Shown: piece after piece, positions 16,499 to 60,210 of the stretch
How the letters are laid out: each line of letters starts with the position of its first letter
How positions within the stretch are numbered: position 1 is the stretch's first letter
Source of the DNA: an uncultured bacterium
GTDB lineage: Bacteria; Edwardsbacteria; AC1; EtOH8
Reading direction: 5' to 3'
Assembly: GCA_963780225.1 (NCBI GenBank)
Contig: CAWAAX010000006.1
Span: 18,136 to 82,135 of the forward strand
DNA length: 64,000 bases
Program-made: the position numbers and the translations under genes
The notes under the pieces: model-generated
What the model saw: only the letters and a program-made list of their open reading frames with translations
What the model was told of the DNA's origin: nothing
Databases searched by the model: none

Positions 16499-16505
16499 AC
16501 TGCTG

Positions 16506-34079: not shown

Positions 34080-34570
34080 GCCAGAGTTCATTCGACATAG
34101 TTTCCAAGATCGATCTTCAGGAAATGAAGAATGCGGTCCAGATGGCCCAGAAGGAGATCATCGGGCGCTTTGATTTCAAGGGCACCAACTGCCAGATAGA
34201 GATCATGGAAGACAAGTTGGTGATCCTGGCCTCGGACGAGTTCAAGCGCAAAAGCATGCTGGACATCATATTCAACAAGGTGGTCAAGCGCGGGATCTCC
34301 ATCAAATCGCTGGAGCAGAAGGAACCCCAGCCGGCCGCCAAGAATTACCTGCGCCAGGAACTGGTGTTCGTGCAGGGGATCCCCATGGACAAGGCCAAGG
34401 AGATGGTCAAACGCATCAAGGCCTCGGGGATCAAGGTCCAGGCCCAGATCCAGGACCTGCAGGTGCGGGTCACCGGCAAGGACAAGGACGACCTGCAGCA
34501 GGTGATCGCGTTGTTCCGGCAGGATGATCTGGGGCTGGCATTGCAGTTCACGAATTATAGGTCTACTTGA
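34076..34570 (+). CDS. yajQ: YajQ family (UPF0234) nucleotide/c-di-GMP-binding protein
   Basis: 'SFDIVSKIDLQEMKNAVQMAQKEIIGRFDFKG' is the YajQ signature. Confidence 0.85.
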   Translation: MSQSSFDIVSKIDLQEMKNAVQMAQKEIIGRFDFKGTNCQIEIMEDKLVILASDEFKRKSMLDIIFNKVVKRGISIKSLEQKEPQPAAKNYLRQELVFVQGIPMDKAKEMVKRIKASGIKVQAQIQDLQVRVTGKDKDDLQQVIALFRQDDLGLALQFTNYRST

Positions 34571-36570: not shown

Positions 36571-36593
36571 GGGTTTGGTTAGAATTCCGCCCC

Positions 36594-36838
36594 AAGCTTC
36601 GGACCGCCCCCCTGCCCCCTCCGTTGCGGAGGGGGAGGGGAGTGTCCCTCTCCACATTGGAGAGGGACAAAGGGAGAGGTCAAAAGCTTCGGACCGCCCC
36701 CTCGTTCCCCCTCCGTAGCGGAGGGGGAATAGGTTGTGTGAATAGTTATGTGTTGATATGTTTGATGATGTAAATAAAACTGATGACGAAATCCCTCTCC
36801 ACAATGGAGAGGGGGAGGGGAGAGGTCGAACCAGGCCA
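36594..36838. repeat. GC-rich mosaic palindromic repeat modules between the MTase gene and the DUF559 gene
   Basis: aagcttcggaccgcccccctgccccctccgttgcggagggggag... occurs twice, and atccctctccacaatggagaggg extends into the 5' end of the DUF559 ORF. Confidence 0.7.
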
Positions 36839-37219
36839 GCCCACCCCAAGGGCAGCACCGGGATTATCAGGCTGCAAAAAGTGAAAAGCAGCAAATTAGA
36901 GTTGGCCAAATATTTCAGACAGCATATGACACTTGGCGAAAGGTGCTTCTGGAATATGACCCGCAAGAACCAGGTCAACGGTTACCGATTCAGACGCCAG
37001 CAGGTGATCCACGGCTTTGTTGCCGATTTCTACTGCAACCAGATAAACCTGGTGGTCGAGATAGACGGCGGCATCCACGAACAGCAGAAGGACTACGACA
37101 AGCTTCGCACAAAAATAATTAACCAGTACGGCATCCGGGTCATACGTTTTACCAACGAAGAAATGATGGATAAAAGCGATTGGGTGTTGGAGAAGTTGAA
37201 GGAAGCTGCGAGAAGTTGA
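36758..37219 (+). CDS. DUF559 (Vsr-like endonuclease-fold) protein; the 5' boundary is uncertain because the ORF's first ~25 codons are repeat sequence
   Basis: 'KLELAKYFRQHMTLGERCFWNMTR...GYRFRRQQVIHGFVADFYCNQINLVVEIDGGIHEQQKDYDKLRTKIINQYGIRVIRFTNEEM' is the DUF559 pattern. Confidence 0.7.
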   Translation: MFDDVNKTDDEIPLHNGEGEGRGRTRPAHPKGSTGIIRLQKVKSSKLELAKYFRQHMTLGERCFWNMTRKNQVNGYRFRRQQVIHGFVADFYCNQINLVVEIDGGIHEQQKDYDKLRTKIINQYGIRVIRFTNEEMMDKSDWVLEKLKEAARS

Positions 37220-46100: not shown

Positions 46101-47979
46101 AGCAGAGCGGAAACTATCGGAATCGGAATTGAAATACCAACAGGTGCTGGAAGGTGTAGCCGAGGGCATTTATCGCACCACGCCGGAGGGAAAAATACTG
46201 CTGGCCAACCAGGCTATAGTAAAAATGTTGGGATATACAACTTTGGAAGAATTAATGAACCGGGATATCAGAAGAGAAGGGTATATCGATCCCGTTTCTC
46301 ACCTCAACTTTATAGAAGAGATGAATAAAAAAGGCCAGGTAAAGAATTGGGTTAGCGAATGGAGAAAGAAAGACGGCTCAATCATGGTGGCCAGGGAAAA
46401 TGCCCATGCGGTCAAGGATCAATCGGGTAAAATCGTTTACTATGAGGGGACGGTTGAGGATATAACGGAGCAGAAAATGGCTGAGCGGAAACTGGCTGAA
46501 TCGGAGCGCAAATACAGCCAGATATTTGAAGACATCGTGGAAGGCATTTACCGGACCACACCCGAGGGGCATGTATTGCTGGCCAACCCGGCCTTGCTGA
46601 GAATGCTGGGCTTTGAAAGCCATGAACAGTTGGTAAAGTTAAATCTGAACAAAGCAGGCTATGTAGATAGCAGCGCCCGCCGCAGGTTCAAGGAACAGAT
46701 GGAACGGGACGGTCAGGTGTTAGGTTTTGAAGCCAAATGGAAGCGTAGCGACGGTAAAATAATAGTAATCAGCGAAAACGCCCGGACGGTCAAGGACGAT
46801 CAGGGCAAGGTGCTTTATTACGAGGGCACTATTGAGGACATAACCGAAAAACAAAAAGCCGAAGAAGATCTTTTAAACGAAAAAAATAAGCTGTCCGACC
46901 TGTTCCGGGTCAGCCTGCAGGTGGCCCGGGCAGGCAACATCCAGAAAAAACTGGACCTGACCATGGATGGCATATACGGTACTGGGTTGTTTGCCAGGGC
47001 GGTGCTGGTGCTCAAAAACGAAGAGGGATGCAACAGCCATATCGCTCATTTTGGCATGACCTCCAAGGAGGTTTCAGCGATTCTAAAGTCCGGTCCGGCT
47101 CAGGCCGAAAAACTGGAAAAAATATTCAATAAAAAATTCCGCTACAGTAATTCGTATTTTATTCCCCATGATTCTCCGGGGATTGATTTTTCCATTAAAC
47201 TGATAAACAAACAATATCAGCCCATCGGAGACTGGCATCCCGAAGATGCTCTGCTGGTGCCCTTGGTGGTCAAGGACAAGCATATCGGCTATTTGACGGT
47301 GGATGAGCCGATCGACGGAAAGATCCCCAGCCTGGAGATAGTCCGGTTGTTGGAGCTGTTCTCCTATCAGGCGGCGGTGGCCATAGATAATATCAGGCTC
47401 TATAGTGATCTGGAGCGGAGTTATTACAGCACCCTTAAGGCTTTTGTAGCGGCCATGGACGCCAAAGATCCATACACCAAGGGCCATTCCGAGAATGTCC
47501 GTTACCATGCATTAACTATCGCCCGCCAGCTTAAACTTCCTGAGGAGCAGGTAAAACTGATAGATTTCAGTTCGTTACTGCACGACATAGGCAAGTTGGC
47601 CATTCGGGACGAGATATTGACTAAACCCAGCCTGCTGTCCGACCACGAATACCAGGAGATAAAACTGCATCCGGTGATCGGCAGCCGTCTGGTGGCCGAG
47701 GTGGAATCATTGATAAAGGTAGCTCCCATAATCCACAGCCATCACGAGCATTACGACGGGTCGGGATATCCCCAGGGCATCAAGGGAGACCAGATTCCCC
47801 TGGAAGCCAGGATCATTGCGGTAGCAGATGCCTTTGAAGCCATGACCTCTGACCGGCCCTACCGTAAGGCCTTCGACTTGAAGGTGGCCATCAAGCGGCT
47901 GCAGGATGCGGCCGGAACCCAGTTTGATAATGAGATCGTAAAAGTATTCATTAAACTTCACCAGGAAACCCATGGATAG
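43117..47979 (+). CDS. Giant sensor c-di-GMP phosphodiesterase: periplasmic sensor-TM-HAMP, about nine PAS/PAC domains, a GAF domain, and a C-terminal HD-GYP domain
   Basis: There are repeated PAS cores. The C-terminal 'HDIGKLAIRDEIL...HHEHYDGSGYPQG' is the HD-GYP signature. Confidence 0.8.
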   Translation: MKLSLKIGLITAAVAGSIAVSVSLNHSFWEGKAWRTELRSHAATMADMLAFTVQESVLKNDFSALEQNIIKFSQRLEIAYAVVYDNSATPLAATGGTASRQAIELYQENPKKHKRDVHKHVIDGQDIYEMLIPVSVDGRDWGMLQVGFYENKILAIYHRTNIFNYLILLLGLGISMAAGWLVARYLGEPIEALMEGADQLVKSNYDHRINIKRKDELGRLVSAFNQMAGTIRQDMVELGSRNLQLLKAQERQLWLARIAEQVGEGVAVTDLEGMVTFVNHSWADMHGYAPEQLLGKHFSIFHSHAQLAREVLPFNQKVMGQGLNAGIVGHIKKDRTVFYTETTMTLLKNYDGEAVGFIGVAHDITDQKKAQEDLKKERDVIKSIFAATPDAVIITDLNGNFIEANDKAIELLELNSRDELLGKNFSAFIAPDDRSLALHNFQKTLDYGGVSNIQLDIVTTKNGQFPLEYSTRLLYSSEGRPTNLVAVGRNIALRKKSELALADSEQRYRTLAESSPDIIFVADRDGTIKYANNKATSIAGLAEGQANGRNISEFFEQGMNDKQKEQLLGVFTSGSTAHYELPTPIGGRELWLETWMVPLTDQTGSVTEVMVLCRDLTSRKRMEEKLLISEQKYRELADSLPQTVFGCDGKGRITYFNKIGYQQSGYEPADIENGLNITDLLIPEDRQRALQNIDGRMQGRPGQNQEYQALRKDGTTFPINIYTSLVIEDGLISGLRGVIVDVSEIKKSEQVLKESEARFRSLAEASPSGIFAYREKFIYANPACQTLTGYSPDELFKMNFWELIHPDHRDMVKQRGLARQRGDNVPSNYEFKMIRKDGQVRWVDFSGTMTQFDGQLSGLGMTLDITERKGIEEILQASEAQYRTTIDSIGDAIHVVDRELNILLVNAVFKEWCHRLGLIKEPSGCNVYEVCPFLSPQVRQEYQSVFETGQPSITQDENIISGKSLFTETRKIPILEGGRTTKVITVIRDITEEKEAERKLSESELKYQQVLEGVAEGIYRTTPEGKILLANQAIVKMLGYTTLEELMNRDIRREGYIDPVSHLNFIEEMNKKGQVKNWVSEWRKKDGSIMVARENAHAVKDQSGKIVYYEGTVEDITEQKMAERKLAESERKYSQIFEDIVEGIYRTTPEGHVLLANPALLRMLGFESHEQLVKLNLNKAGYVDSSARRRFKEQMERDGQVLGFEAKWKRSDGKIIVISENARTVKDDQGKVLYYEGTIEDITEKQKAEEDLLNEKNKLSDLFRVSLQVARAGNIQKKLDLTMDGIYGTGLFARAVLVLKNEEGCNSHIAHFGMTSKEVSAILKSGPAQAEKLEKIFNKKFRYSNSYFIPHDSPGIDFSIKLINKQYQPIGDWHPEDALLVPLVVKDKHIGYLTVDEPIDGKIPSLEIVRLLELFSYQAAVAIDNIRLYSDLERSYYSTLKAFVAAMDAKDPYTKGHSENVRYHALTIARQLKLPEEQVKLIDFSSLLHDIGKLAIRDEILTKPSLLSDHEYQEIKLHPVIGSRLVAEVESLIKVAPIIHSHHEHYDGSGYPQGIKGDQIPLEARIIAVADAFEAMTSDRPYRKAFDLKVAIKRLQDAAGTQFDNEIVKVFIKLHQETHG

Positions 47980-50900
47980 AAGTAAAAATAACAAAACCGA
48001 CCCCGTTCTAAGGACCGGGCGGGTTACAAAAGCCAGATCTGTAAAAACGCCGGACCGGGGGAGTTCTTCCGGGGCCCAGAGCCTGGAAAAAAGGCTGGAG
48101 GAGATCTCGGTGCTAAGCCAGATTGCCCAATCCATGGCCCGGGTAATGAATCTGGAAGAACTTTGGCCCCGGCTACACCGCGAAGTGAGCCGTTTGCTCG
48201 ATGCCCGGAATTTTTACGTGGCTTTGTGGCACCACCGGCAGGGAAAGGCAGTAGAATTCATTTATGAGATCAAAGACGGAAAACGTCTGCCAAAATCCCA
48301 AAAATCACGGGCCCGCGGACTGACCGAACTGGTGCTGGAATCGGGTAAACCACTGCTGTTAAAACATGAAGAAATAAAAAAAAGAGGCCGTCCTCTAAAA
48401 AACGGCGACCAGCCGGCTCTTTCCTGGTTGGGAGTTCCCATTCGGATCAGGGAGCATACCATGGGAATGATAGCTGTTCAGAATTACCAGCAGACCGGAC
48501 TCTACAACCTGAACCATCAGGAATTGTTAGTATCCATTGCCGGTTATGCGGCAGTAGCTTTGGAAAATTCCCGGCTGCATACGGCCGCCCTGCAAAAAGC
48601 CAAAGAAGCCGAAGCTCTGCATCAGTTGAGCGAAGCCGCAGTAACCGATGCCAATCTGGACGAACTGCTTCAGAGGATACCTTTGTTGATCAAAGAAACC
48701 TTTGGCTATTTGACTTGCGCCATCCTGCTTTCCGATCAGGAAGACAAATACTTGTATCTTAAGGCCGCAGTGGGATATCGGGCCAAAGTAATAAGGGATA
48801 CCCGCATCGCCATCGGTCGAGAAGGAATAACCGGCTGGGTAGCATCCCAGGGAAAAACCATGTATGTTCCTGATGTCAGCAAAGAGAAACGTTATTTGGA
48901 AGTAGAGAGCAACTGCCGTTCGGAAGCAGCGTTGCCTCTCAAATTCCGGGATAAGGTCATAGGGGTATTGGATATTGAGAGTTCCCGATTGGATGGATTC
49001 AGCCCCTATGACATCCGGCTTTTGGAAAATTTTGCTAACCAGGCAGCGGCAGTCATCCAGAAAATACGGCTGGAACAACTGGCCCATCAGAAAATCAAAG
49101 AGCTCGCTACTCTATCCGATATCTTTCAGGGATTTACGGTCAGTATGGGCCTGGGTGCGTTGACCGGAGAACTGACGCGGAAAATAGGCCAGGCTATGGA
49201 AAGCGATAAATGCCTGATCGCCTTGTATGATGCCGTAAGCGGTCAGTTATCTGGACTGCCCCAGGGCTTCATGACCAAGAAACTTTCTGATAAACAAAGA
49301 AAAATATTCAGAGATAAGGACGAATTAAGCCGGGCTATGCGCTTTTATTTAGATCAGGGCGGGGCGGCCACCATGGTCTTTAAGACGGGACAGCCTTATT
49401 TTACCAACCAAGTCCGAACTGATTCCAAGATCATTCAAAAACTGGCCAAAACTTATGAGATCAATAAACTCCTGATACTACCGCTGAAATCCCGGGATAA
49501 AATGCTGGGATTGATATATGTAGCCGACAAAGAAGGTGGCCGGGATTTTGACCGCAATGACGCAAAGATGGGAGAGGTTTTAGCCAGCCAAGCTGCATTA
49601 CTTTTGGACAACGCCATGCTGTACCAGAAAATGGATATGGGTTTAAAGCAGCTAACTACCCTTTACCAGATGAGTCAGGCGGTGATCAATGCTACCGATG
49701 AGAACGAAGTGATGATGCTGAGTCTCAAAATCATCGGTGACATTATCCCCGCCGATACTATTACCCTGATGTTGATCGATCCGTCCACCGGCGATTTGGT
49801 AATTAAAGCTGCCCGGGGACTTTCGGATGAAATTGAAAAACAGCCTAGGCTCAAATCGGGCCAGGGATTGGCCGGCTGGGTAACCGAGCATATGGAGCCG
49901 GTGCTGACTGCCGACCTGGGCAGCGATCCTAGGTTTGTTTTACTGCCCCAGAAAGAGAATCTGGGCGCCTCCATCCTGGTTCCGTTGCAGGCCAAGGCCC
50001 AGCTGCTGGGAGTTTTGAACATCAATAATTTCCGGGGTAATCCCCAAGAATTTACTTTGGAACAGTTGCAGTTGGCCCAGATCATGGCAAGCAGTATTGC
50101 CATGGCACTGGAAAGGACCGAGCTGGTGATAGCCTTGGACAGCCGGGCCTCGGTTCAGAAATCACTGCTGGAAACCAGCCGCCTTTTGCTGGGTTCTCTT
50201 CAAATCGAAGATGTGCTTCCCAAGATCTCGCAGGAGATCGAGCGCTTGATTCCATTTGAGAGGCTGGCCATCTATAAGGTGGATTGGGCAACCAAAAACC
50301 TTTCACCGATGATGGCGTTGGGCCCATATCAGGATGAGATAATGGCCGATACTTCGTTTTCCATGGATACAAGCATAGTTGGGAATATTGCTCAAACCGG
50401 CCGGCCGGAGATCATCCCCGATGCTCTCCGCGATGTCCGGACCAGACATATAGCCGGAACCGACGACGACTCGGAATCCTTATTGGTGGCTCCTCTTTTG
50501 GTAAATGGACGCAGTGAGGCAATGTTGTTAATCGGGCGCCCGGTGGGTCTTGGTTTTACTTCCCGGGAATTGGAGATAGCTTCGCTGTTCGCCAACCAAG
50601 CGGCGGTAGCCTGGAAGAATGCCAGCATGTTCGGGGAAATTAACCGCAACCAGGGGGAACTTTCCGAAGCCAATAGCCGGCTTAATTTGGCGCTAAAACG
50701 ACAGATTGAGGTGAATACCGAGCTTTCCACCATGCAGTATCTTTCCAGCACCATCCTTTCGTCACTAAAACTGGAAGAGATTCTTTCGGTAATAGTGGAG
50801 GGCATCAGGACCAGCCTTGGTTTTGACCGGGTATTGATCAGCAGCGCCGAGTCTGATGGCCTTAATCTGATCCACCAGGCGGCCGCAGGAATTCCTCCGG

Positions 50901-52753
50901 AAGAGTTCCAGGAAATGCAGCAAAACAAATTACCCTTGTCCGACGTTATGCCATTAATGCGGTCAGATTTCCGGATCAGCAATTCCTTCTTAGCCCCGGC
51001 TCCGGGCCAGGAACAGGTAAAACCCAAGTCTGGAGATCATCCGAAAGATTCCGGCCTTTGGCAAGAGGGCAGCCGGATTTTAACCCCGCTCTACGCCAAG
51101 AACCGCCGGATGCTGGCGTTGATTCAGATTGAGAAACCGTCGGCTGGCAGGGTTCCCGATAAAAAGAAAATCCGGTCATTGGAAGCTTTTGCCAACACCG
51201 CAGTGCTGGCCATCGAAAACGCCACTCTGTATCTGGATGCCCAGAATCGAATTACCGAGCTTTCGGTGCTTTATGAGATCGGCACCATCATCTCCTCGGT
51301 GCTGGAAAAGCACCAGCTGCTGGAAAGCGTGGTCAACCTGATTAGAGAAAAACTTCATTACCTGAAAGTGGCCATTTTTGAAGTGGAGCCCATCACCGGC
51401 AGCCTGTTCGTTGGCGGACAGAGCGGATACGAGCAAGAGTTGGAGCAGGTCCATTTTACGGTGGGCGGCAACAGCGTGGTGGGGTGGGTGGCGGAAAAAG
51501 GGCAGCCCCTGATAATTCCGGATGTTCGTCAGGAACCGCTCTATGTGGTCGGTGATCAACGGGTGCTTTCGGAGATAGCCATTCCCATCAAACGCGAGGA
51601 GCAGGTCCTGGGGGTGATGAGCATCGAGGACGATAAGTTGGACGCTTTCGACCAATCGGATGCTCAGCTTTTATCCACTTTGGCCAACCAGGTGGCAGTG
51701 GCCATGGATAACGCCCGGTTGTATGGCCAGGCACAACACCTCTATCAGGAAGCCCAGCGCAACGTTCGCGACCTTTCGGCCCTGCATAGCGTGGGCACCA
51801 CAGTCAGCTCCACCCTGCAACTGCAGGATCTGCTGCAGCAGGTTTGCAGCATTCTTAAAGACACTTTCGGTTACGCCAAAATATCTATTCTGCTGACCGA
51901 TTTCCTGCGGGATGAACTGGAACTGATGGTCAGCCTGGGGTATCCAGATAGCGTCAAGGAGACCGGCCGGAGGGTGAAGATAGGCAGCGAAGGTATCACC
52001 GGTAAAGCCGGTCTGACCGGAGAAGCAATAATCGTCAACGATGTCAGCAAGGAACCGTCTTATATCTGTATAGACCAATGCACAAGATCGGAGATGGCGG
52101 TTCCATTAAAACTCAAAGGCCGGATCATTGGTGTGATCAACGTAGAGAGTGATGCCATTGGGGATTTTGACCGGATAGACATGAATCTGTTGAACACTTT
52201 GGCCACCCAAATATCGGTGGCGGTGGAAAACGCCAGACTGTACCAGGAAACCGAGCAGCTGGCGGTAACCGATGGCCTGACCGGAGTGAACAATCATCGT
52301 TACTTCCAAAGCTTTTTTGAGCGGGAGCTCAACCGGGCCAAACGTTACAATCATCCGTTGGCTTTGATTATGCTGGATATCGACCACTTCAAAAAATTCA
52401 ACGACAAATTCGGCCATCCGGTGGGAGACCTGGTGCTTAAAACAGTGACCGAGATACTCAAACAGCAGGCCCGGGAGGTGGATCTGGTGGCCCGTTATGG
52501 GGGTGAGGAGTTTATGTTGGTGCTTCCCGAAACCGGGAAAAAAGAAGCGGTGATGCTGGCCGAACGGATCAGGCTGGCGGTTAAAAAATATCCACTGACG
52601 GATGCTCAGAACAAGCCGCTGCCCAATATCACGGTTAGCCTAGGAGTCTCCAGTTATCCGGAGAACGGCTCGGAGAAGGAGGAGATGATTGACTATGTGG
52701 ACAAATGTCTTTATAAGGCCAAAGCCGGCGGCCGCGATCTGGTAAAGCATTAG
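47972..52753 (+). CDS. Giant sensor diguanylate cyclase: about eight to nine tandem GAF domains and a C-terminal GGDEF domain
   Basis: C-terminal 'GLTGVNNHRYF...LIMLDIDHFKKFND..GH..GD..L...RYGGEEFMLVLPET' is the GGDEF signature. It overlaps the upstream gene by 8 bp. Confidence 0.8.
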   Translation: MDRSKNNKTDPVLRTGRVTKARSVKTPDRGSSSGAQSLEKRLEEISVLSQIAQSMARVMNLEELWPRLHREVSRLLDARNFYVALWHHRQGKAVEFIYEIKDGKRLPKSQKSRARGLTELVLESGKPLLLKHEEIKKRGRPLKNGDQPALSWLGVPIRIREHTMGMIAVQNYQQTGLYNLNHQELLVSIAGYAAVALENSRLHTAALQKAKEAEALHQLSEAAVTDANLDELLQRIPLLIKETFGYLTCAILLSDQEDKYLYLKAAVGYRAKVIRDTRIAIGREGITGWVASQGKTMYVPDVSKEKRYLEVESNCRSEAALPLKFRDKVIGVLDIESSRLDGFSPYDIRLLENFANQAAAVIQKIRLEQLAHQKIKELATLSDIFQGFTVSMGLGALTGELTRKIGQAMESDKCLIALYDAVSGQLSGLPQGFMTKKLSDKQRKIFRDKDELSRAMRFYLDQGGAATMVFKTGQPYFTNQVRTDSKIIQKLAKTYEINKLLILPLKSRDKMLGLIYVADKEGGRDFDRNDAKMGEVLASQAALLLDNAMLYQKMDMGLKQLTTLYQMSQAVINATDENEVMMLSLKIIGDIIPADTITLMLIDPSTGDLVIKAARGLSDEIEKQPRLKSGQGLAGWVTEHMEPVLTADLGSDPRFVLLPQKENLGASILVPLQAKAQLLGVLNINNFRGNPQEFTLEQLQLAQIMASSIAMALERTELVIALDSRASVQKSLLETSRLLLGSLQIEDVLPKISQEIERLIPFERLAIYKVDWATKNLSPMMALGPYQDEIMADTSFSMDTSIVGNIAQTGRPEIIPDALRDVRTRHIAGTDDDSESLLVAPLLVNGRSEAMLLIGRPVGLGFTSRELEIASLFANQAAVAWKNASMFGEINRNQGELSEANSRLNLALKRQIEVNTELSTMQYLSSTILSSLKLEEILSVIVEGIRTSLGFDRVLISSAESDGLNLIHQAAAGIPPEEFQEMQQNKLPLSDVMPLMRSDFRISNSFLAPAPGQEQVKPKSGDHPKDSGLWQEGSRILTPLYAKNRRMLALIQIEKPSAGRVPDKKKIRSLEAFANTAVLAIENATLYLDAQNRITELSVLYEIGTIISSVLEKHQLLESVVNLIREKLHYLKVAIFEVEPITGSLFVGGQSGYEQELEQVHFTVGGNSVVGWVAEKGQPLIIPDVRQEPLYVVGDQRVLSEIAIPIKREEQVLGVMSIEDDKLDAFDQSDAQLLSTLANQVAVAMDNARLYGQAQHLYQEAQRNVRDLSALHSVGTTVSSTLQLQDLLQQVCSILKDTFGYAKISILLTDFLRDELELMVSLGYPDSVKETGRRVKIGSEGITGKAGLTGEAIIVNDVSKEPSYICIDQCTRSEMAVPLKLKGRIIGVINVESDAIGDFDRIDMNLLNTLATQISVAVENARLYQETEQLAVTDGLTGVNNHRYFQSFFERELNRAKRYNHPLALIMLDIDHFKKFNDKFGHPVGDLVLKTVTEILKQQAREVDLVARYGGEEFMLVLPETGKKEAVMLAERIRLAVKKYPLTDAQNKPLPNITVSLGVSSYPENGSEKEEMIDYVDKCLYKAKAGGRDLVKH

Positions 52754-53047
52754 ACAGCAATGGGAACTATTATATCCGCCGGCTCCGTCGTTCATAGCCG
52801 CCTGTAATTAGTGCTTACTATGGCGCCGGACGATTCCCGTAGATTTTAATCATGCTTCATTTTTCATTAAAATCATGAGATGTCAGCACCATCAGGGGGC
52901 AGACGAAATCGAAACCAAAATAATGGAATGCAGCCAGTTCTCCGAGGGAACAGGATACATATTTGAATTAGCGGTTCCCGGTCAAGAGCTGGCACACAAA
53001 TTATAGGTTCCCTTGGATGCGATATTTAAAAATAAGGATATAACTCA

Positions 53048-54319
53048 ATGGCTTCGTTCATCAAGCCTCATTCCCGCTGGTCTCAGGTGTGGCGGGCGTA
53101 TCTTTTTATAGGGGCCTTGCTGCTGGTGGCGGTATCGCTGGTCTACACGGTGGGGCTGATCAAAAGGCTGGAATCCGAGCCCCGGATCATGTCCCGGGTA
53201 TTTGCCCGGTTCTGCATGACCGCTGCCCTGCCTGCGCCAGCCGGAGAATCGCCCGAGACCGGTATAATATTTGAAGAAGTCATCCAGAACATCAATTTCC
53301 CGGTGGTGGTAACCGACCGCCAGGGCCTGCCCATCGCCTGGCGGGGGATTGATGTCAAAGGAACGGAGTTTGACCAGCAGGTCATTCCCCTTGAAGTGGC
53401 CGAACGCTGGGAGAAACTGACGCCCGAAGAGCCGTTCTATCAACTAAAAACGGCCATCGGAGAACTGGATCACCAGAACCAGCCGATCACCATGACCCTG
53501 GGGCAGGACACCAGCAATGTGGTCACCGTCCATTACGGCCAGCCAAGCGTGTTACGGGAACTGCGGTTCATCCCCATCATCCAGTTAGTGTTGGTGGCCC
53601 TTTTTGTCTGGATCGGTTTCATAGGCTTCCGTACCATCAAGATCAACGAAGAGAGGGCGGTGTGGGTGGGCCTGGCCAAGGAAGCGGCCCATCAACTGGG
53701 CACGCCCATCTCCTCGCTTATGGGGTGGCTGACCCTGCTCAAAGACGGAGGACATCCGCCAACCGATGTGGTACCCGAGATGGAAAAGGATCTGGCCCAC
53801 CTTAACCGGGTACTGGCCCGTTTCAACCAGATCGGCTCCACTCCCAAACTGCAGACGGTGGAAGTCACCAAGTTGACCACCGAAGCGGTGGATTATTTCC
53901 GGCGCCGGGTGGCCAACATGGGCAAGGATATTTCATTTGAGGAAGATTATCAGCAGATCTGTGAAGTAGCTTTAAACGCTGAGCTTTTCTTGTGGGCGGT
54001 GGAAAACCTGATCAAGAATGCCATCGATGCCATTGATAGTCCGGGCGGCCTGATCAAGATCAAGGTCAGCCGCAACGGCCCAAAACTGGAGATCATAGTG
54101 GAGGACAATGGCCGGGGGATCAATCCCAAGAACCAACCCAAAATATTCCGGCCGGGGTTCACCACCAAGTCGGTGGGCTGGGGGCTGGGCCTTTCCCTGG
54201 TCAAAAGGATCATCGAGGATTACCACGGGGGAAGGATCAAACTGCTGTTCAGCCGGCCCGGTATCGGCACTGCTTTTATCATAAATCTGCCCCTGCCTTC
54301 CAAATCAAAATCACTTTAA
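53048..54319 (+). CDS. Sensor histidine kinase with two TM helices and a periplasmic loop
   Basis: HisKA 'AHQLGTPISSL' and HATPase 'IVEDNGRGI...GWGLGLSLVKRI'. Confidence 0.8.
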   Translation: MASFIKPHSRWSQVWRAYLFIGALLLVAVSLVYTVGLIKRLESEPRIMSRVFARFCMTAALPAPAGESPETGIIFEEVIQNINFPVVVTDRQGLPIAWRGIDVKGTEFDQQVIPLEVAERWEKLTPEEPFYQLKTAIGELDHQNQPITMTLGQDTSNVVTVHYGQPSVLRELRFIPIIQLVLVALFVWIGFIGFRTIKINEERAVWVGLAKEAAHQLGTPISSLMGWLTLLKDGGHPPTDVVPEMEKDLAHLNRVLARFNQIGSTPKLQTVEVTKLTTEAVDYFRRRVANMGKDISFEEDYQQICEVALNAELFLWAVENLIKNAIDAIDSPGGLIKIKVSRNGPKLEIIVEDNGRGINPKNQPKIFRPGFTTKSVGWGLGLSLVKRIIEDYHGGRIKLLFSRPGIGTAFIINLPLPSKSKSL

Positions 54320-54327
54320 GGACAATA

Positions 54328-55887
54328 GTGGAAAGACCATATAAAATACTTTGGGTGGACGATGAAATTGAACTGTTGAAGTCACAGATCCTCCTGCTTC
54401 AGAACAAGGGCTTTATCGTTATCCCGGCAGCTTCGGGCGAGGAAGCGCTGATCCGGGTCAAGGAAACTGATATTGACCTGGTGCTGCTGGACGAGATGAT
54501 GCCCGGAATGGACGGTTTGGCCACATTAGCCGCCTTACGCCAGCTGAGTCCCGAGCTTCCGGCCATCATGGCCACCAAGAACGAGAAGGAGGAACTGGTG
54601 GAACAGGCCCTGGGCCATAAGATCGATGACTTTTTGCTGAAGCCGTTGAACCCGGCCCAGGTGCTGGCCTCCTGCCGGAGGGTGCTGGAATCCCGCCATT
54701 TGGTGGAGGGGCAGGCCAGCAGGGAATACCTGTCCCAGCTGAACAGCCTGCGGAATTTTGATTATCCCTCGCTGGACTGGCAGGGCTGGTGCCACCACTA
54801 CCAGATGCTGACCGAATGGGACCTGCGGTTGTCAGAACTGCCAGACCAGGGACTGCACCAGAGCCACGAGGACATCACCAGGGAGGCCAACCTGGAATTC
54901 GGGCGGTTCATAGAAGAGAATTACATCCATTGGATGCACGGCGCTTCCCGCCCGATACTTTCCCCCGACCTGGTGGAACGGTACCTGTTGCCGACCCTGA
55001 AAAACAACCAAAAATGCCTGCTGCTGGTGTTGGATTGCATGAGGCTGGATCAGTGGTTGCTGCTGGAGCCCTACTTAAAGGAGTGGTTCGACATCAAGCG
55101 GGAGCATTATTATTCCATCCTGCCCACCGCCACGCCATACTCCCGTAACGCCATCTTCAGCGGTTTGTATCCCTCGCAGCTGGCCCGGAACTATCCCCAG
55201 TACTGGGAAAAAGGAGGTCACGCCGGCGAAGCCAGCCTGAACCGCCACGAGCATCAGCTTTTGGAACTGCAACTGCAACGGCTGAAGGTACCCCATCCGT
55301 CGGATTTCCGCTATTCCAAGATATACAACATTGACGAAGGCCGTGAACTGAAGAAGGTCTTCGGCTCCTGGCAGAATGTTGCGCTGGCGGCGGTAGTGGT
55401 CAACTTCATGGATATCCTGGTCCATTCCCGGGCCGAGTCGCTGGTGCTGCAGGAGATCGCCCCGGACGAAAGGGCCTTCCGTTCCCTGACCCGCACCTGG
55501 TTCGCCAATTCCGACGTGCTGAACATCCTGCAGCAGGCGGCCAGGCAAAAAAGGCAGGTGATAGTGACCACCGACCACGGATCGCTACAGGGCCGGCGGG
55601 CCACCATCATCCAGGCCGGACGGGATACCAGCGCCAACCTTCGCTACAAGTCCGGCACCAACATATCCTGCGATCCCCGTCAGGTGCTGTGGATCAAGAA
55701 ACCGCTGGAATACATGCTGCCAGAGGATTTTACCGGCCTGCAATACCTGGTGGCCAAGGAGGATTATTATCTGGTCTATCCCACCAAGTATGAAGAATAC
55801 CGCAAGCGTTATGAAGGGACCTTTCAGCACGGCGGAATTTCGATGGAGGAGATGATCCTGCCGGTGTGCCGGTTGACCCCGAAGTGA
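54328..55887 (+). CDS. Response regulator with an N-terminal REC domain fused to a C-terminal PglZ-like (alkaline-phosphatase superfamily) domain
   Basis: REC: 'ILWVDDE..LLDEMMPGMDG..KP'. The C-terminal ~370 aa contain 'VIVTTDHGS', the PglZ-type metal-ligand motif, and there is no DNA-binding output domain. Confidence 0.65.
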   Translation: MERPYKILWVDDEIELLKSQILLLQNKGFIVIPAASGEEALIRVKETDIDLVLLDEMMPGMDGLATLAALRQLSPELPAIMATKNEKEELVEQALGHKIDDFLLKPLNPAQVLASCRRVLESRHLVEGQASREYLSQLNSLRNFDYPSLDWQGWCHHYQMLTEWDLRLSELPDQGLHQSHEDITREANLEFGRFIEENYIHWMHGASRPILSPDLVERYLLPTLKNNQKCLLLVLDCMRLDQWLLLEPYLKEWFDIKREHYYSILPTATPYSRNAIFSGLYPSQLARNYPQYWEKGGHAGEASLNRHEHQLLELQLQRLKVPHPSDFRYSKIYNIDEGRELKKVFGSWQNVALAAVVVNFMDILVHSRAESLVLQEIAPDERAFRSLTRTWFANSDVLNILQQAARQKRQVIVTTDHGSLQGRRATIIQAGRDTSANLRYKSGTNISCDPRQVLWIKKPLEYMLPEDFTGLQYLVAKEDYYLVYPTKYEEYRKRYEGTFQHGGISMEEMILPVCRLTPK

Positions 55888-55909
55888 TTTCCGCCGAATA
55901 AATCAAAAA

Positions 55910-56374
55910 ATGCATTTGATACATCTTCCATTCAATATAACCACCAGCTCCGCCGAACAGACCCAATCCTTCGGACATACGCTGGCCTCCCGTTTATTGC
56001 CCGGGGATGTGATCTGCCTGTGGGGCGACCTGGGCACCGGCAAGACCACCCTGACCCAGGGCATCTGCCGGGGTCTGCAGTCAAAGGAGATGGCGGTCAG
56101 TCCCAGTTACGGTCTGATCCACGAGTACCAGGGGATCTGCGATATCTATCACCTGGACCTGTACCGGCTGGAAAACTCAGCCCAGGCCGAAGAGATCGGC
56201 GTCACGGAATATCTTTACGGCCGGGGGATCTCCATCCTGGAATGGCCGGAGCGGATCCGCGATATCCTGCCGGAAAGCCGGCTGGATATTCATCTGACCA
56301 GGCTGGACCAGCAGACCCGGAAAATTGAGATCAAAACATCAGGAAATAACTGGAATGACAGGTTTAATAATTGA
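55910..56374 (+). CDS. tsaE: tRNA threonylcarbamoyladenosine biosynthesis ATPase TsaE
   Basis: 'GDVICLWGDLGTGKTTL'. Confidence 0.9.
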   Translation: MHLIHLPFNITTSSAEQTQSFGHTLASRLLPGDVICLWGDLGTGKTTLTQGICRGLQSKEMAVSPSYGLIHEYQGICDIYHLDLYRLENSAQAEEIGVTEYLYGRGISILEWPERIRDILPESRLDIHLTRLDQQTRKIEIKTSGNNWNDRFNN

Positions 56375-57035
56375 CACCAGCGGTCCCTGGCTGAACATGG
56401 CCGTATGCCGGGAGGATGATATTTTGGCCTCGGTATCACAGGATGCGGGCAACCAGCAGGCCGAGAGACTTCCTTTTGAACTGGGCAACATCCTGGCCAA
56501 GGCAAAGGTGAAGCTGTCTGAAGCAGACTGGCTGGCGGTAACGGCGGGGCCGGGCTCTTTTACCGGCCTGCGGGTGGGGGTATCATTTGCCCAGGGTCTG
56601 GCCATGGGCTCCGGCATCAGGCTTTTGCCGCTCAACACGCTGGATGCCATGGCCTGTCTGCCGGAGGGTTTTTCCGGAGAATTGTCTCCGATGATGGACG
56701 CCAAAAAGGGACAGGTCTACACGGCCTTATACCGGTCAGAAAACGGGACCAGCCATCCGGTCTCTTCATATCAGGTGCTGGAACCCCAAGCCTGGCTTTC
56801 CCGGCTGGCTCCCCGGACAAAAGTATTCGGCAGCGGAGCTTATGCCTACCGGGAGATGATATCACAGTCATACCCGGAACTGATGATGGATGAAGCATAT
56901 ATCAACGGCCCGGAGATCAGCGGCCTGGTCAGGCTGGCCTTAAAAAACCTCAATCAAAACAAATTTGTACCGGCCGAAGAGCTGGATGCGTTTTACATAC
57001 GCCCCTCTGATGCCGTGGTCAAACTGAATGCCTGA
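56355..57035 (+). CDS. tsaB: tRNA threonylcarbamoyladenosine biosynthesis protein TsaB
   Basis: 'MTGLIIDTS...GPGSFTGLRVGVSFAQGLA'. Confidence 0.88.
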   Translation: MTGLIIDTSGPWLNMAVCREDDILASVSQDAGNQQAERLPFELGNILAKAKVKLSEADWLAVTAGPGSFTGLRVGVSFAQGLAMGSGIRLLPLNTLDAMACLPEGFSGELSPMMDAKKGQVYTALYRSENGTSHPVSSYQVLEPQAWLSRLAPRTKVFGSGAYAYREMISQSYPELMMDEAYINGPEISGLVRLALKNLNQNKFVPAEELDAFYIRPSDAVVKLNA

Positions 57036-57492
57036 GATCAAGGTAGACCTTGAGAGAATGACGGAAGGCCATCTGTCCCAAGTATTGGCCATAGAGCAGG
57101 CCAGCTTTTCCGATCCCTGGAGCGAAGTGATGTTCCGGCAGGAACTGGAGGATGACCCGGGAAAGTACCCCGTTGTCCTGACCATGAATTCCCAGGTGAT
57201 CGGCTACGGCCTGGGCTGGATCGTGCTGGACGAGTTTCATCTGGGCAACCTGGCGGTCCGGCCGGACCTGAAGGGGCGGGGGTACGGAAGCCTGATACTG
57301 GAGCGCATGCTCAAGCTGGTTAAGAGCAAGGGCTGCCGGACGGCATCGCTGGAGGTCAGGGCCTCGAACCATACCGCCATTAACCTGTATCATAAATACA
57401 ATTTCAAAGAGATCGCCGTTCGCAAGAAGTATTATCAGGATGAGGATGCCCTGGTGCTGCTGGCCCGGCTGGATGAGGAAAAAGCATGCTGA
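57028..57492 (+). CDS. rimI: Ribosomal-protein-alanine N-acetyltransferase (GNAT)
   Basis: GNAT motifs 'LGNLAVRPDLKGRGYGSLIL'. The tsaE-tsaB-rimI gene order is the conserved arrangement. Confidence 0.85.
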   Translation: MPEIKVDLERMTEGHLSQVLAIEQASFSDPWSEVMFRQELEDDPGKYPVVLTMNSQVIGYGLGWIVLDEFHLGNLAVRPDLKGRGYGSLILERMLKLVKSKGCRTASLEVRASNHTAINLYHKYNFKEIAVRKKYYQDEDALVLLARLDEEKAC

Positions 57493-58817
57493 AAAAGGGG
57501 GATATCATTGAACTGGGACTGGACAGCATGGCTTGCGGCGGGGATGCGGTAGGACGGCACCTGGGACAAACCGTATTCGTGCCTTACGGGCTGCCCGGCG
57601 ACCAAGTGAAGGTCCGGGTGTTCGACGCCCACCAGAAATACTGCCGGGCCGTGATAATGTCCATCGTCAGCCCCGGCCCCCAGCGGATCAAGCCGGCCTG
57701 CCAGTATTTCGGGGACTGCGGCAGCTGCCAGTGGCAGATGATTGATCATCCCCGCCAGCTGGAGCACAAAAAAACAATTCTGGAACAGACCCTGGCCAGG
57801 ATCGGCGGCATCAAGGATGCCGGGATCGAAGTCCTGGCAGAAGGCTCCCCCTGGCATTACCGCAACAAGGCCCAGTATCCGGTGTCCCAGTCCAAAGGGA
57901 AACTGGTCATCGGTTATTACCGGCAGGGCAGCCACCAGGTGGTTCCGATCGAAGAATGTCCCATCATCCAGCCCGGTTTAAACCGGGTGTTCCAGCAAGC
58001 CAGGGACATCCTGTTGACCGCAAAGGTGCCGGGATATGATGAACTGACCAACAATGGGATATTGAGGCACTTGATCCTTCGTTACGGACAGTATCAGGAT
58101 AAGATATCCCTGACCCTGGTCTGCACCAAGGACAAGATACATCCGGAAGTGATAGACTCATTGTCCGCCATTCCCGGGGTCGGTTCGGTATGGCTGAACC
58201 TGAATGCCGAGCCGGGCAACACCATCCTGGGGAGAAAATGGAAACTGTTGTCCGGGGAAAACCAGATGGAGGAAGAACTGGACGGGATCAGGTACAAGCT
58301 TTCGGCCGGATCTTTCTGGCAGGTGAACCAGCTGACGGCCGGAGTGCTGTACCGCCGGATAAAAGATGAACTGCAGTTGACCAGCCGGCAGCAGGCGGTT
58401 GACCTTTATTGCGGGGCCGGAGCCATCTCCCTGCAACTGGCTTCATCGTCCGGCAAGGTGCTGGGAATAGAGTCTTCGACCCAGGCGGTGGATGACGCCA
58501 GGGACAGCGCCAAAATGAACGGGATCACCAATGCCGAGTTCATGGCCGGCCCGGCCGAAGTGCTTTTGGAAAAAGTGCAGCAGGCCGACGCGGTGGTCTG
58601 CGATCCGCCCCGCAGCGGTCTGAAGCCGGAAGTGATCCGGGAACTGACCAGGCTAAAACCTCAAAAGATAGCTTATCTTTCCTGCGATCCGGCCACTTTG
58701 GCCCGGGACCTGAAAGAGATCATGAAATCGGATTACCGGATATCAGGCCTTTATACCGCCGATATGTTCCCCCAGACCTATCACATAGAAACTCTGGCTT
58801 TATTGCAAAGGAAATAA
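57486..58817 (+). CDS. rlmD: 23S rRNA (uracil-C5)-methyltransferase RlmD/RumA family (TRAM domain, Fe-S cysteines, SAM MTase)
   Basis: TRAM N-terminus, 'CQYFGDCGSCQWQ', and 'VCDPPRSG'. Confidence 0.88.
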   Translation: MLKKGDIIELGLDSMACGGDAVGRHLGQTVFVPYGLPGDQVKVRVFDAHQKYCRAVIMSIVSPGPQRIKPACQYFGDCGSCQWQMIDHPRQLEHKKTILEQTLARIGGIKDAGIEVLAEGSPWHYRNKAQYPVSQSKGKLVIGYYRQGSHQVVPIEECPIIQPGLNRVFQQARDILLTAKVPGYDELTNNGILRHLILRYGQYQDKISLTLVCTKDKIHPEVIDSLSAIPGVGSVWLNLNAEPGNTILGRKWKLLSGENQMEEELDGIRYKLSAGSFWQVNQLTAGVLYRRIKDELQLTSRQQAVDLYCGAGAISLQLASSSGKVLGIESSTQAVDDARDSAKMNGITNAEFMAGPAEVLLEKVQQADAVVCDPPRSGLKPEVIRELTRLKPQKIAYLSCDPATLARDLKEIMKSDYRISGLYTADMFPQTYHIETLALLQRK

Positions 58818-59324
58818 ATGAAAACCGGGAATAAAAAAACGCCGCCCAGCGGCCTATTATTTTGGCCGGGGTGGCTGTTATTGCTGAGCCTGTCGGGCTG
58901 CTATTCCTTTCACAGCGGCCGACTGCCTTTCAAGACCATCGGGGTACCGGTGGCCTCCAATGCCACCGGGGATTACCGGCTGCCGGACCTGATCACCAAG
59001 TCGGTGATGACCGCCATCACCAGGGACGGCTCGGTGAAGCTGGCTGAACCAGAGAAATCAGAAGGGGTGATGGCCATAGAGATCAAAAGCTACAGCCGGG
59101 ATCCCCTCAAATACAGCGCTCAGGAAGTGGTCTCGGAATACAAGATCACCATCACGGCGGCGGTGACCGTTAAAAACGACCAAGGCAAGGTCCTCTGGGA
59201 GAACCTTGCCTTAAGCGTCTGGAGCACCTATCTTCCTGATCAGGAAGAAGAAAGCGCGGGGATCGGGAAAGCCTCGGACAAGCTGGCCGAGGAAATAGTA
59301 AGGCAGGCCTTTGAGAATTGGTGA
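58818..59324 (+). CDS. Lipoprotein, possibly LptE-like
   Basis: It has the lipobox 'LSLSGC', is 168 aa long, and has LptE-like size and composition. The assignment is weak. Confidence 0.35.
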   Translation: MKTGNKKTPPSGLLFWPGWLLLLSLSGCYSFHSGRLPFKTIGVPVASNATGDYRLPDLITKSVMTAITRDGSVKLAEPEKSEGVMAIEIKSYSRDPLKYSAQEVVSEYKITITAAVTVKNDQGKVLWENLALSVWSTYLPDQEEESAGIGKASDKLAEEIVRQAFENW

Positions 59325-59328: not shown

Positions 59329-60210
59329 TTACTGGGTGGGGAAAAAAAGGATCCGGTGGTTGTCGCAGTCCACAATATAGAGGTTTCCGCTTTCATCTAA
59401 AATAATTCCCTGGGGGTTATAAAACTGGCCTTCTCCGCTGCCGCTGTTGCCGCCGGTGCTTTGAAAAACGCCATCCAGAGAAAATTCCTGAAAACGGTCA
59501 TTGCCGGAATCGGTGACGAATATCTGTCCGTTGGAGCTCATGGCTATCCCGGAGGGAGAATCAAACTCTCCTGTATCCTCACCGTAGGACCCCCAGCTGG
59601 AAAGATATTCGCCTTGGGGCGAAAAGACGCAAATCCGGTTATTACCGGTGTCAACCACATAAAGACGGCCTTCGCCGTCAAAGACCAGGCCCCGGGGTTT
59701 GCGCAGCTGGCCTGGCTGGCTGCCGGACCGGCCGATGGTTTCCAATATCATCCCGTCTGAGTTCAAGATGTAGATCATGTCCTGCGATTGGTCGCTGAGA
59801 TAGATGTTGCCGTTGGCGGCAATGACGATCCCATAGCAGCGGGATGAGTCCGGCAGGGGCAGCTGGTACAACTGGATGCCTTCCTGGTCGGACACCAGTA
59901 TCCGGCGGTTGCCGCTGTCCACGGTGTAGATGTTGCCGTCAGGAGCAATGGTCAGCGAAACAGGGTCGTCAAAATCGGCCGAGTCCTGTCCAAAACGGCC
60001 CCAGCTTTGCAGAGGCTCAAGCTCGGGGCTGAATTTTTGGACCCGGTCATTTCCCAGCTCCGTTACATAGATGTGGCCCTGTCCGTCCAGCGCCACCCCG
60101 GCAGGGAAGGAATACTCGCCGGGGTTGTCCCCGAAATCGGCCCGGGCCCAGATCGGCAGCAACAACAGCAGGGCCAGATAATATTTGATTAATTTATTCA
60201 TCACCACCAA
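59329..60210 (-). CDS. Secreted NHL-repeat six-bladed beta-propeller protein
   Basis: It has a signal peptide and repeated 'P.GIA.D..GN.YV.D..N.R...F' NHL blades. Confidence 0.8.
   Translation of the reverse strand: MVVMNKLIKYYLALLLLLPIWARADFGDNPGEYSFPAGVALDGQGHIYVTELGNDRVQKFSPELEPLQSWGRFGQDSADFDDPVSLTIAPDGNIYTVDSGNRRILVSDQEGIQLYQLPLPDSSRCYGIVIAANGNIYLSDQSQDMIYILNSDGMILETIGRSGSQPGQLRKPRGLVFDGEGRLYVVDTGNNRICVFSPQGEYLSSWGSYGEDTGEFDSPSGIAMSSNGQIFVTDSGNDRFQEFSLDGVFQSTGGNSGSGEGQFYNPQGIILDESGNLYIVDCDNHRILFFPTQ

Follow-up and report, generated by a model that had tools for sequence, protein, structure and literature searches.

The two genes at positions 53048 to 55887 of the window (the whole 64,000-nucleotide stretch of DNA analyzed here) very probably encode the PorY-like kinase and PorX response regulator of an Edwardsbacteria-like bacterium. 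Both open reading frames are intact and lie on the forward strand. The kinase gene (53048 to 54319, ATG start, 423 amino acids) ends 8 bp before the regulator gene (54328 to 55887, GTG start preceded by AGGA, 519 amino acids), so the adjacent two-component pair of the original prediction is confirmed. Each protein has thousands of full-length homologues, and for this reason we regard both as products of real genes rather than as chance open reading frames. Edwardsbacteria are an FCB-related candidate phylum, and the host, an uncultured Candidatus Edwardsbacteria-like organism, does not belong to the Bacteroidota as P. gingivalis and F. johnsoniae do.

Judged by its sequence, the regulator is a full-length PorX orthologue in which all catalytic and phospho-acceptor residues are intact. 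Amino acids 6 to 519 match positions 2 to 513 of the 513-position NCBIfam equivalog model NF052313 ("T9SS response regulator signal transducer PorX") with 614 bits, compared with a cut-off of 300, and phmmer aligns amino acids 3 to 519 with the PorX entries 7pv7, 7pvk, 8ted, and 8p6f in the PDB with E values of 7e-119 to 6e-117. The reference proteins, P. gingivalis PGN_1019 (PDB 7PV7, 7PVA, and 7PVK) and F. johnsoniae Fjoh_2906 (PDB 8P6F, 8TED, and related entries), are 518 to 520 amino acids long and have the same REC domain, three-helix bundle, and APS/PglZ domain with its cap. Identity to the two is 37 to 38%, with a global value of only 38% for the P. gingivalis protein. The structure comparison gives the same answer: the 17 best PDB matches to an AF2 model of the regulator (pLDDT 78) in a Foldseek search are all PorX (TM 0.69 to 0.73), and the matches ranked below them cover the REC domain only.

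The REC domain (amino acids 7 to 114; 54346 to 54669; Pfam Response_reg, 84.2 bits) carries the phospho-acceptor D55 (54490 to 54492), which aligns with D58 of P. gingivalis PorX, and the REC active-site residues D11, D12, T83, and K105 are invariant among the regulator homologues. The fusion of this domain to a PglZ-like domain with a TTDHGS motif (amino acids 414 to 419; 55567 to 55584) is as originally described, and the reading of the protein as a regulator without a DNA-binding domain is upheld. The single PglZ block of ~370 amino acids that had been proposed is not what the AF2 model displays; instead, a three-helix bundle of ~95 amino acids (approximately amino acids 109 to 204; roughly 54650 to 54940) precedes an APS/PglZ phosphodiesterase domain of ~310 amino acids (206 to 519; 54943 to 55884). 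The Pfam PglZ model PF08665 matches amino acids 229 to 424 of the regulator (50.4 bits; cut-off, 25). The metal-binding residues, the loss of which was to have counted against the PglZ assignment, are all present. Regulator residues D236, T269 (the nucleophile; 55132 to 55134), D362, H366, D416, H417, and H501 correspond to D239, T272, D361, H365, D415, H416, and H500 of P. gingivalis PorX, and R273 and N359 are identical to R276 and N358, which make the contacts to the second pGpG phosphate. Phospho-acceptor, nucleophile, six further zinc ligands, and the Arg/Asn pair are thus the same in this protein as in the two reference proteins. These 10 key residues are invariant in 18 homologues; in 80 loci, 9 of them are identical throughout and N359 is retained in 77.

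The original prediction also linked the PglZ domain to BREX, which raises the possibility that it is a BREX-like phage defense component placed under two-component control. The Pfam PglZ match fits such a protein, as do weak matches to NF033449 (BREX-3 PglZ, 82 bits) and to the PADLOC PglZ models (64 bits), and a DNA methyltransferase gene lies ~18 kb upstream. However, NF033449 has a cut-off of 250, far above 82 bits, and the match to the NCBIfam and PADLOC BREX models is confined to their C-terminal catalytic part (PADLOC at most 64 bits), whereas the PorX equivalog is matched from end to end. BrxC, PglX, BrxA, BrxB, and BrxL are absent, the neighbors are housekeeping genes, and the methyltransferase is paired with a DUF559 endonuclease-like open reading frame far from the locus. 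The PglZ proteins of BREX types 1 to 6 share with the regulator a PglZ/alkaline phosphatase superfamily catalytic core and its metal ligands, but they lack a REC domain, have a different N-terminal region, and are encoded with BrxC, PglX, and other components; they are reportedly metal-dependent nucleases. What remains of the proposed tie is a common fold. With BREX models scoring below threshold and the partner genes missing, we consider a phage defense role effectively refuted.

The assignment to PorX means that the regulator is not the mechanistically unresolved enzyme with an unknown substrate that was first envisaged, since PorX has published structures, activity, and partners. PorX is a Zn-dependent phosphodiesterase that cleaves pApA, pApG, pGpG, and cA3/cA4/cA6 but does not cleave c-di-GMP itself; the P. 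gingivalis protein has been crystallized, including in complex with pGpG, which it cleaves to GMP, and a nanoRNase-like role has been discussed by Schmitz et al. (PMC9757075). Its partners are PorY, the T9SS motor protein PorL/GldL, SigP, and UbK1 (PMC9757075, PMC11320123, PMC10951265, PMC13241743); the Zn-dependent activity and the binding of PorL/GldL and SigP were established with PorX from P. gingivalis and from F. johnsoniae (PMC9757075, PMC10951265, PMC11320123). The part of the original prediction that concerned phosphodiesterase chemistry stands as the activity expected of this regulator at a two-zinc site. ENPP1/ENPP3-type nucleotide pyrophosphatase/phosphodiesterases, which have been cited as structural analogues of PorX, have the same two-zinc APS site, Thr nucleophile, and wide oligonucleotide cleft, but the likeness is one of fold and mechanism only, and these eukaryotic ecto-enzymes lack phosphorylation-controlled dimerization. 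Even in model organisms, the in vivo substrate of PorX and the role of its phosphodiesterase activity are debated. Secretion of the gliding adhesins of F. johnsoniae does not require PorX, and deletion of porY in P. gingivalis does not abolish T9SS function, an observation that has put the PorX-PorY pairing in question (PMC11320123).

If the system works like that of P. gingivalis and F. johnsoniae, the kinase would respond to a periplasmic signal by autophosphorylation at H215 and would pass the phosphoryl group on to PorX, at D55. For P. gingivalis, published work identifies this signal as the sorting domain at the C terminus of PorA, a cargo protein. Phosphorylated PorX would then form an intertwined dimer in which the phosphodiesterase site is switched on, and the active enzyme would convert 3'-5' linear di- and oligonucleotides (pApA, pApG, and pGpG) and cyclic oligoadenylates to nucleoside monophosphates. 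The phosphorylated REC domain may also dock onto the cytoplasmic tail of PorL/GldL; P. gingivalis PorX binds an extracytoplasmic function (ECF) sigma factor as well, according to the same body of work. The net outcome would be an adjustment of T9SS expression or activity.

As far as its conserved motifs indicate, the kinase is catalytically complete, and it has a PAS-like (PDC/Cache) periplasmic sensor. A hydropathy scan places transmembrane segments at about amino acids 17 to 39 (53096 to 53164) and 174 to 196 (53567 to 53635), which bracket the sensor, a loop of ~134 residues (amino acids 40 to 173; 53165 to 53566). The DHp region contains H215 (53690 to 53692) and is followed by the HATPase domain (amino acids 317 to 417; 53996 to 54298; Pfam HATPase_c, 79.9 bits). 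The two helices, periplasmic loop, and HATPase that were predicted are therefore all found, although the HisKA match is weak (19.3 bits, which is less than the Pfam cut-off of 26.9). Nevertheless, 30 homologues show no variation in the H box (AHQLGTP, with H215) or in the N, G1, and G2 boxes. No NCBIfam model matched the sensor half, PorY has no PDB entry, and none of the cluster names retrieved for 10 diverse kinase homologues was from the Bacteroidota.

What the kinase shares with PorY of P. gingivalis (PGN_2001) is its architecture, as judged by comparison with the published description (PMC4800418, PMC12152298). The kinase has the PorY-type layout of two transmembrane segments, a periplasmic domain, and a HisKA/HATPase core. 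The periplasmic domain of PorY spans A35 to R149 between its two transmembrane segments, so that the two periplasmic domains are ~115 to 135 amino acids long, and in both proteins the DHp and HATPase domains directly follow the second transmembrane segment with no HAMP domain; in the window kinase, ~18 residues separate the end of this segment from H215. PorY is the partner of PorX and has the C-terminal domain of PorA as its ligand in P. gingivalis. However, porY and porX are orphan genes that lie far apart in P. gingivalis, while the window porX has its kinase gene immediately upstream. This adjacency is not peculiar to the window: a homologous kinase, including the sensor, adjoins porX in all 8 Edwardsbacteria-lineage genomes and, in other phyla, in 19 of 73 loci. 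Of the 19, three are unclassified MAG loci and the others come from at least 7 named phylum-level groups; the operonic arrangement occurs in Eisenbacteria, Latescibacteria, Zixibacteria, Poribacteria, Fibrobacterota, and some Ignavibacteria. On this gene-order evidence, the kinase and porX form a conserved operon pairing in several phyla, and the operonic kinase, together with its sensor domain, is a natural candidate for the one that was ancestrally cognate to PorX.

A tsaE/UbK-family ATPase-kinase gene (55910 to 56374, forward strand) lies 22 bp downstream of porX and is followed by tsaB (56325 to 57035), rimI (57028 to 57492), rlmD (57486 to 58817), and an LptE-like gene (58818 to 59324). 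The position of tsaE/ubK downstream of porX is common to the window and P. gingivalis, whose UbK1, a protein of the same family, phosphorylates PorX in vitro, a modification that is separable from gingipain secretion (PMC13241743). The TsaE/UbK-family protein probably provides PorX with a second input. Although the linkage was reported in 2026 in one species, it is ancient and extends to many phyla, since in 57 of 76 loci from more than 12 phyla tsaE comes directly after porX, and tsaB follows in 37. This breadth, the separable UbK1 modification, and the nanoRNase-like role mentioned above are consistent with PorX being a general hub tied to TsaE/UbK and the t6A/ribosome modification operon, rather than a dedicated secretion regulator, with the kinase and UbK as two inputs acting on nanoRNA or oligonucleotide pools and hence on transcription and translation. 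We think this improbable, at roughly a one-in-ten level of credence. The UbK1 target Y79 of P. gingivalis PorX is not conserved: it is a Glu (E76) in the window regulator and a Tyr in only 1 of 80 loci. Furthermore, because housekeeping clusters of tsaE, tsaB, and rimI are common, the porX-tsaE linkage may be a frozen operon neighborhood. Poribacteria, most Gemmatimonadota, and Rhodothermales have lost this linkage, and in two Edwardsbacteria genomes it is interrupted.

Upstream of the PorY-like kinase and PorX lie two giant genes on the forward strand. The first (43117 to 47979) encodes a membrane-anchored protein of 1620 amino acids with HAMP, multiple PAS, GAF, and HD-GYP domains, a predicted c-di-GMP phosphodiesterase in which the HD and GYP motifs are intact. 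The second (47972 to 52753) overlaps it by 8 nucleotides, ends 294 bp before the kinase gene, and encodes a predicted diguanylate cyclase of 1593 amino acids with seven GAF domains and a GGDEF domain (intact GGEEF motif and RxxD I-site). The earlier observation that the pair sits downstream of giant c-di-GMP enzymes is therefore correct, and 8 of 8 distinct Edwardsbacteria-lineage genomes have the HD-GYP, GGDEF, kinase, and porX genes in one contiguous block, with PorX 52 to 70% identical to the window protein. As a general trait of porX this neighborhood must be rejected: outside the lineage, a GGDEF domain is encoded less than 8 kb from porX in 1 of 80 loci and an HD-GYP domain in none. P. 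gingivalis, too, has no HD-GYP or EAL gene.

Within the lineage, the arrangement raises the possibility that PorX serves mainly in c-di-GMP turnover and that the four genes form one signaling module, which may or may not feed the T9SS. The GGDEF giant would make c-di-GMP, the HD-GYP giant would linearize or degrade it, and phosphorylation-gated PorX would clear or sense pGpG, a role likened to that of Orn, NrnA, or PggH. The GGDEF-kinase gap is only ~10 to 90 bp in six of seven relatives (in L084, an open reading frame of 104 amino acids intervenes), and the four-gene block is kept both where three or four inserted genes split porX from tsaE (L085 and L088) and where the downstream synteny has not been preserved (L086). 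Both giants have intact catalytic motifs, pGpG is bound by P. gingivalis PorX in the crystal and cleaved to GMP (PMC9757075), and the phosphate contacts R273 and N359 are conserved. On the other hand, the loss of the association outside the lineage means that such a role cannot be ancestral for the PorX family, and gene order in these genomes is generally well conserved, which makes co-linearity weak evidence. In addition, the gap before the kinase gene is 294 bp in the window, HD-GYP enzymes usually degrade c-di-GMP all the way to GMP, and c-di-GMP itself is not a PorX substrate (PMC9757075). An Rfam scan of positions 52000 to 57000, including the 294-bp gap, found no c-di-GMP riboswitch or other element at an E value of ≤0.1, and promoter and terminator counts from 52600 to 56500 were no better than those of shuffled sequences (5 versus 2.6 and 5 versus 4.7, respectively). 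We consider it unlikely, with perhaps one chance in six or seven, that c-di-GMP turnover is the main business of PorX in this lineage. Our estimate is similarly low for an Edwardsbacteria module in which PorX, as a phosphorylation-gated pGpG/oligonucleotide hydrolase, completes or reads out this turnover. If true, it would be the first genomic link between the in vitro pGpG activity of PorX and a physiological c-di-GMP pathway, and c-di-GMP would possibly be coupled to type IX secretion. The lineage-specific joining of the porX locus with HD-GYP and GGDEF genes is in any case a testable hint to the physiological substrate of PorX.

Since current NCBI models would assign the PorX name automatically, the identity of the regulator is mostly settled and the remaining value of the locus is comparative; what is modestly new is the operonic kinase, the porX-tsaE/ubK linkage, and the lineage-limited HD-GYP/GGDEF neighbors. 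With regard to the secretion system itself, the 64-kb window contains no porK/L/M/N, sov/sprA, porV, or porU gene and no SigP-like sigma factor gene, and our literature search found no paper tying Edwardsbacteria to T9SS. The organism does appear to encode T9SS cargo, and the presence of the system here rests on one cargo-type sorting domain. This predicted type A domain is at the C terminus (amino acids 749 to 824) of a beta-propeller/Ig-repeat protein encoded at 26 to 2509 on the forward strand, and it matches both TIGR04183 (43.4 bits; cut-off, 23) and Pfam PF18962 (40.9 bits; cut-off, 27).

The two genes lie where the original prediction had placed them, with the kinase at 53048-54319 (+ strand, ATG start, 423 amino acids) and the regulator at 54328-55887 (+ strand, GTG start with AGGA 5' of it, 519 amino acids), and 8 bp separate the kinase stop from the regulator start. 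No Rfam element was found in positions 52000 to 57000, and promoter-like and terminator-like matches around the pair are not above shuffled controls. The regulator matches the Pfam models Response_reg at 84.2 bits and PglZ (PF08665) at 50.4 bits (cut-off, 25), and carries the TTDHGS motif at residues 414 to 419. The PglZ output domain is thus confirmed, although what had been described as a single block of ~370 residues is a three-helix bundle of ~95 residues followed by an alkaline-phosphatase-superfamily/PglZ domain of ~310 residues. With the NCBIfam equivalog NF052313 ("T9SS response regulator signal transducer PorX"; T9SS, type IX secretion system), the regulator scores 614 bits (cut-off, 300), in an alignment that spans model positions 2 to 513 of 513. 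The best five PDB sequence matches are all PorX (7PV7/7PVA and 7PVK from P. gingivalis; 8TED and related entries and 8P6F from F. johnsoniae), with E values of 7e-119 to 3e-116 over residues 3 to 519, and all the matches ranked below them are bare receiver domains. An AlphaFold2 model built with 18 homologues (pLDDT 78, pTM 0.71) is likewise closest to PorX: the first 17 Foldseek matches in the PDB are full-length PorX chains (E values of 1e-44 to 1e-49, TM scores of 0.69 to 0.73), followed by REC domains only. Global identity with P. gingivalis PorX is 38%. Based on every sequence and predicted-structure criterion that could be tested, we conclude that the regulator is a member of the PorX family.

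The domain interpretation was therefore right, but the protein is not an enzyme lacking a mechanism, since PorX is already well characterized; what is new is a member of this known kind in an uncultured phylum. A BREX reading of the locus does not hold. At 82 bits, the regulator stays below the 250-bit cut-off of the BREX-3 PglZ model, PADLOC PglZ models score ≤64 bits and cover the catalytic core only, and there is no BREX partner gene in the window. A DNA adenine methyltransferase gene (type II/III-like, 546 amino acids) followed by a DUF559/very-short-patch-repair-like endonuclease ORF (153 amino acids) at 34930-37219 may be a restriction-modification remnant; these genes are unrelated to the PglZ gene.

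The residues defined for P. gingivalis PorX by Schmitz et al. (PMC9757075) were mapped onto the window regulator. The phospho-acceptor (P. gingivalis D58, window D55), the nucleophile (T272, T269), and the contacts to the pGpG phosphate (R276 and N358, R273 and N359) are identical, and the metal-binding residues expected of the PglZ domain are present, with all Zn ligands (D239, D361, H365, D415, H416, and H500) identical at D236, D362, H366, D416, H417, and H501. All of these mapped columns, the pGpG-phosphate contacts included, show no variation across 18 aligned homologues. Scanning one genome per species yielded 80 loci outside the Edwardsbacteria lineage with PorX homologues (38 to 49% identity), from Bacteroidota, Ignavibacteriota, Chlorobiota-labelled MAGs, Eisenbacteria, Latescibacterota, Zixibacteria, Calditrichota, KSB1, Cloacimonadota, Marinimicrobia, Fibrobacterota, Gemmatimonadota, Poribacteria, and WOR-3. 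Nine mapped residues are identical in 80/80 loci, and N359 is identical in 77/80. Three PorX contigs labelled Limnocylindria (Chloroflexota) or Hyphomicrobiales (Alphaproteobacteria) (L006, L044, and L058) are probably mis-binned MAG contigs rather than evidence of PorX in those groups.

Because residue conservation in the window PorX is complete, we infer its mechanism from published systems. By analogy, a periplasmic cue sensed by the kinase would lead to phosphorylation of D55, and phospho-PorX would form an intertwined dimer in which the two-zinc site is organized. This site may cleave 3'-5' linear dinucleotides (pApA, pApG, and pGpG) and cyclic oligoadenylates; c-di-GMP and mononucleotides are not cleaved by P. 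gingivalis PorX (PMC9757075). The phosphorylated REC domain might also bind the cytoplasmic tail of the T9SS motor protein PorL/GldL (PMC10951265). P. gingivalis PorX acts, in addition, via the ECF sigma factor SigP (PMC4800418).

The predicted kinase architecture of two transmembrane helices, a loop, and a HisKA/HATPase core is borne out. HATPase_c scores 79.9 bits (the HisKA match is weak), the H-box AHQLGTP (H215) and the N, G1, and G2 boxes are invariant in a 30-sequence alignment, and hydropathy places transmembrane segments at residues ~17 to 39 and ~174 to 196, with a loop of ~134 residues between them. Only ~18 residues separate the second segment from H215, so a HAMP domain is absent. 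P. gingivalis PorY, whose periplasmic region is A35-R149 and which binds the C-terminal domain of PorA, has the same layout (PMC12152298), and by this analogy the window kinase appears PorY-like in role and architecture.

The porX and porY genes of P. gingivalis lie at separate sites and are called "orphans" (PMC4800418, PMC11320123). We searched six-frame ORFs of the porX loci with the window kinase by phmmer; 73 of the 80 loci had enough upstream sequence. A full-length kinase homologue lies directly 5' of porX on the same strand in 19/73 loci, and within 8 kb in four more. Adjacency is seen in Latescibacterota (3/3), Zixibacteria (2/2), Poribacteria (4/4), Fibrobacterota (1/1), Eisenbacteria (3/7, plus 3 nearby), Ignavibacteriota (2/10), and Gemmatimonadota (1/6), and in 0/11 Bacteroidota, which indicates that an operonic kinase-porX arrangement is common outside Bacteroidota. 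The N-terminal sensor half is matched in most of the 19 adjacent kinases; in the four from Poribacteria, the window kinase as a whole gives a match, whereas its sensor half queried alone does not. This operonic arrangement is the first of three modest comparative points.

The second is that linkage of porX to tsaE/ubK spans many phyla. In the window, tsaE (55910-56374) starts 22 bp 3' of porX, and next come tsaB, rimI, rlmD, and an LptE-like gene. Across loci, tsaE is directly 3' of porX in 57/76, from >12 phyla, with tsaB next in 37. The same linkage has been described within 81 strains of P. gingivalis, in which UbK1, a TsaE/YjeE-family protein, phosphorylates PorX Y79 in vitro, with gingipain secretion unaffected (PMC13241743, 2026). 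Its presence across so many phyla shows that this synteny is far older than P. gingivalis. The target tyrosine is not conserved, being E76 in the window and tyrosine in 1/80 loci. Between the LptE-like gene and priA is an NHL-repeat beta-propeller gene (59329-60210, - strand); a gene of equal size, strand, and position is found in seven Edwardsbacteria-lineage loci (all but L086), with an NHL/beta-propeller match recorded only in the window and, weakly, in L089.

The third point is a coupling to HD-GYP and GGDEF genes that is specific to Edwardsbacteria. The giant c-di-GMP pair predicted 5' of the kinase is real, consisting of an HD-GYP gene (43117-47979, + strand; 1620 amino acids, HAMP/PAS/GAF/HD-GYP, HD...GYP motif intact) and, overlapping it by 8 nt, a GGDEF gene (47972-52753, + strand; 1593 amino acids, 7xGAF-GGDEF, RxxD...GGEEF motif intact). 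The order HD-GYP giant, GGDEF giant, kinase, PorX is kept in 8/8 distinct Edwardsbacteria-lineage genomes examined (the window, L081, and L084 to L089), whose PorX proteins are 52 to 70% identical to that of the window. In these genomes the giants are ~1,400 to 3,000 amino acids long and rich in PAS or GAF domains, the first has a CHASE8-like/HAMP membrane anchor, and the gap from the GGDEF giant to the kinase is usually 10 to 90 bp. The four-gene block persists where 3 or 4 genes are inserted between porX and tsaE (L085 and L088), and also in L086, which has lost the downstream synteny and has a toxin-antitoxin pair between the giants. Outside the lineage, GGDEF genes occur within 8 kb of porX in 1/80 loci and HD-GYP genes in 0/80, so the association is lineage specific. 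P. gingivalis PorX binds pGpG and also cleaves it (PMC9757075), so the association hints, reasonably but weakly, at a PorX role in c-di-GMP turnover; we consider it unlikely that the PorX phosphodiesterase acts in this turnover in Edwardsbacteria-lineage organisms.

The nearest homologues of both proteins are from Candidatus Edwardsbacteria MAGs (61 to 74% identity for PorX, 57 to 68% for the kinase), which NCBI places in the candidate phylum Edwardsiibacteriota, and the next nearest, at ~50%, are from Eisenbacteria, Zixibacteria, and Latescibacteria. The 64-kb window contains no T9SS machinery genes. The product of its first ORF (26-2509) ends in a T9SS type A sorting domain (TIGR04183, 43.4 bits, cut-off 23; PF18962, 40.9 bits, cut-off 27), so the organism makes T9SS-type cargo. 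The rest of the window is housekeeping (recA, alaS, tsaD, efp, ftsK, mutL, miaA, purD, and others). Apparent frameshifts split alaS (at ~16470 to 16510, into 14357-16498 and 16506-16994) and pilT (at ~29260 to 29310, with a stop at 259 amino acids and the C-terminal part in another frame), which suggests assembly indels rather than real pseudogenes. A gene for a YajQ-family c-di-GMP-binding protein (34076-34570; 188 bits, above cut-off) is a further sign of c-di-GMP signalling in the organism. The window also encodes, at 17291-18049, a homologue of geranylgeranylglyceryl/heptaprenylglyceryl phosphate synthase (NF003198, 283 bits, above cut-off), the enzyme family of archaeal-type ether lipids.
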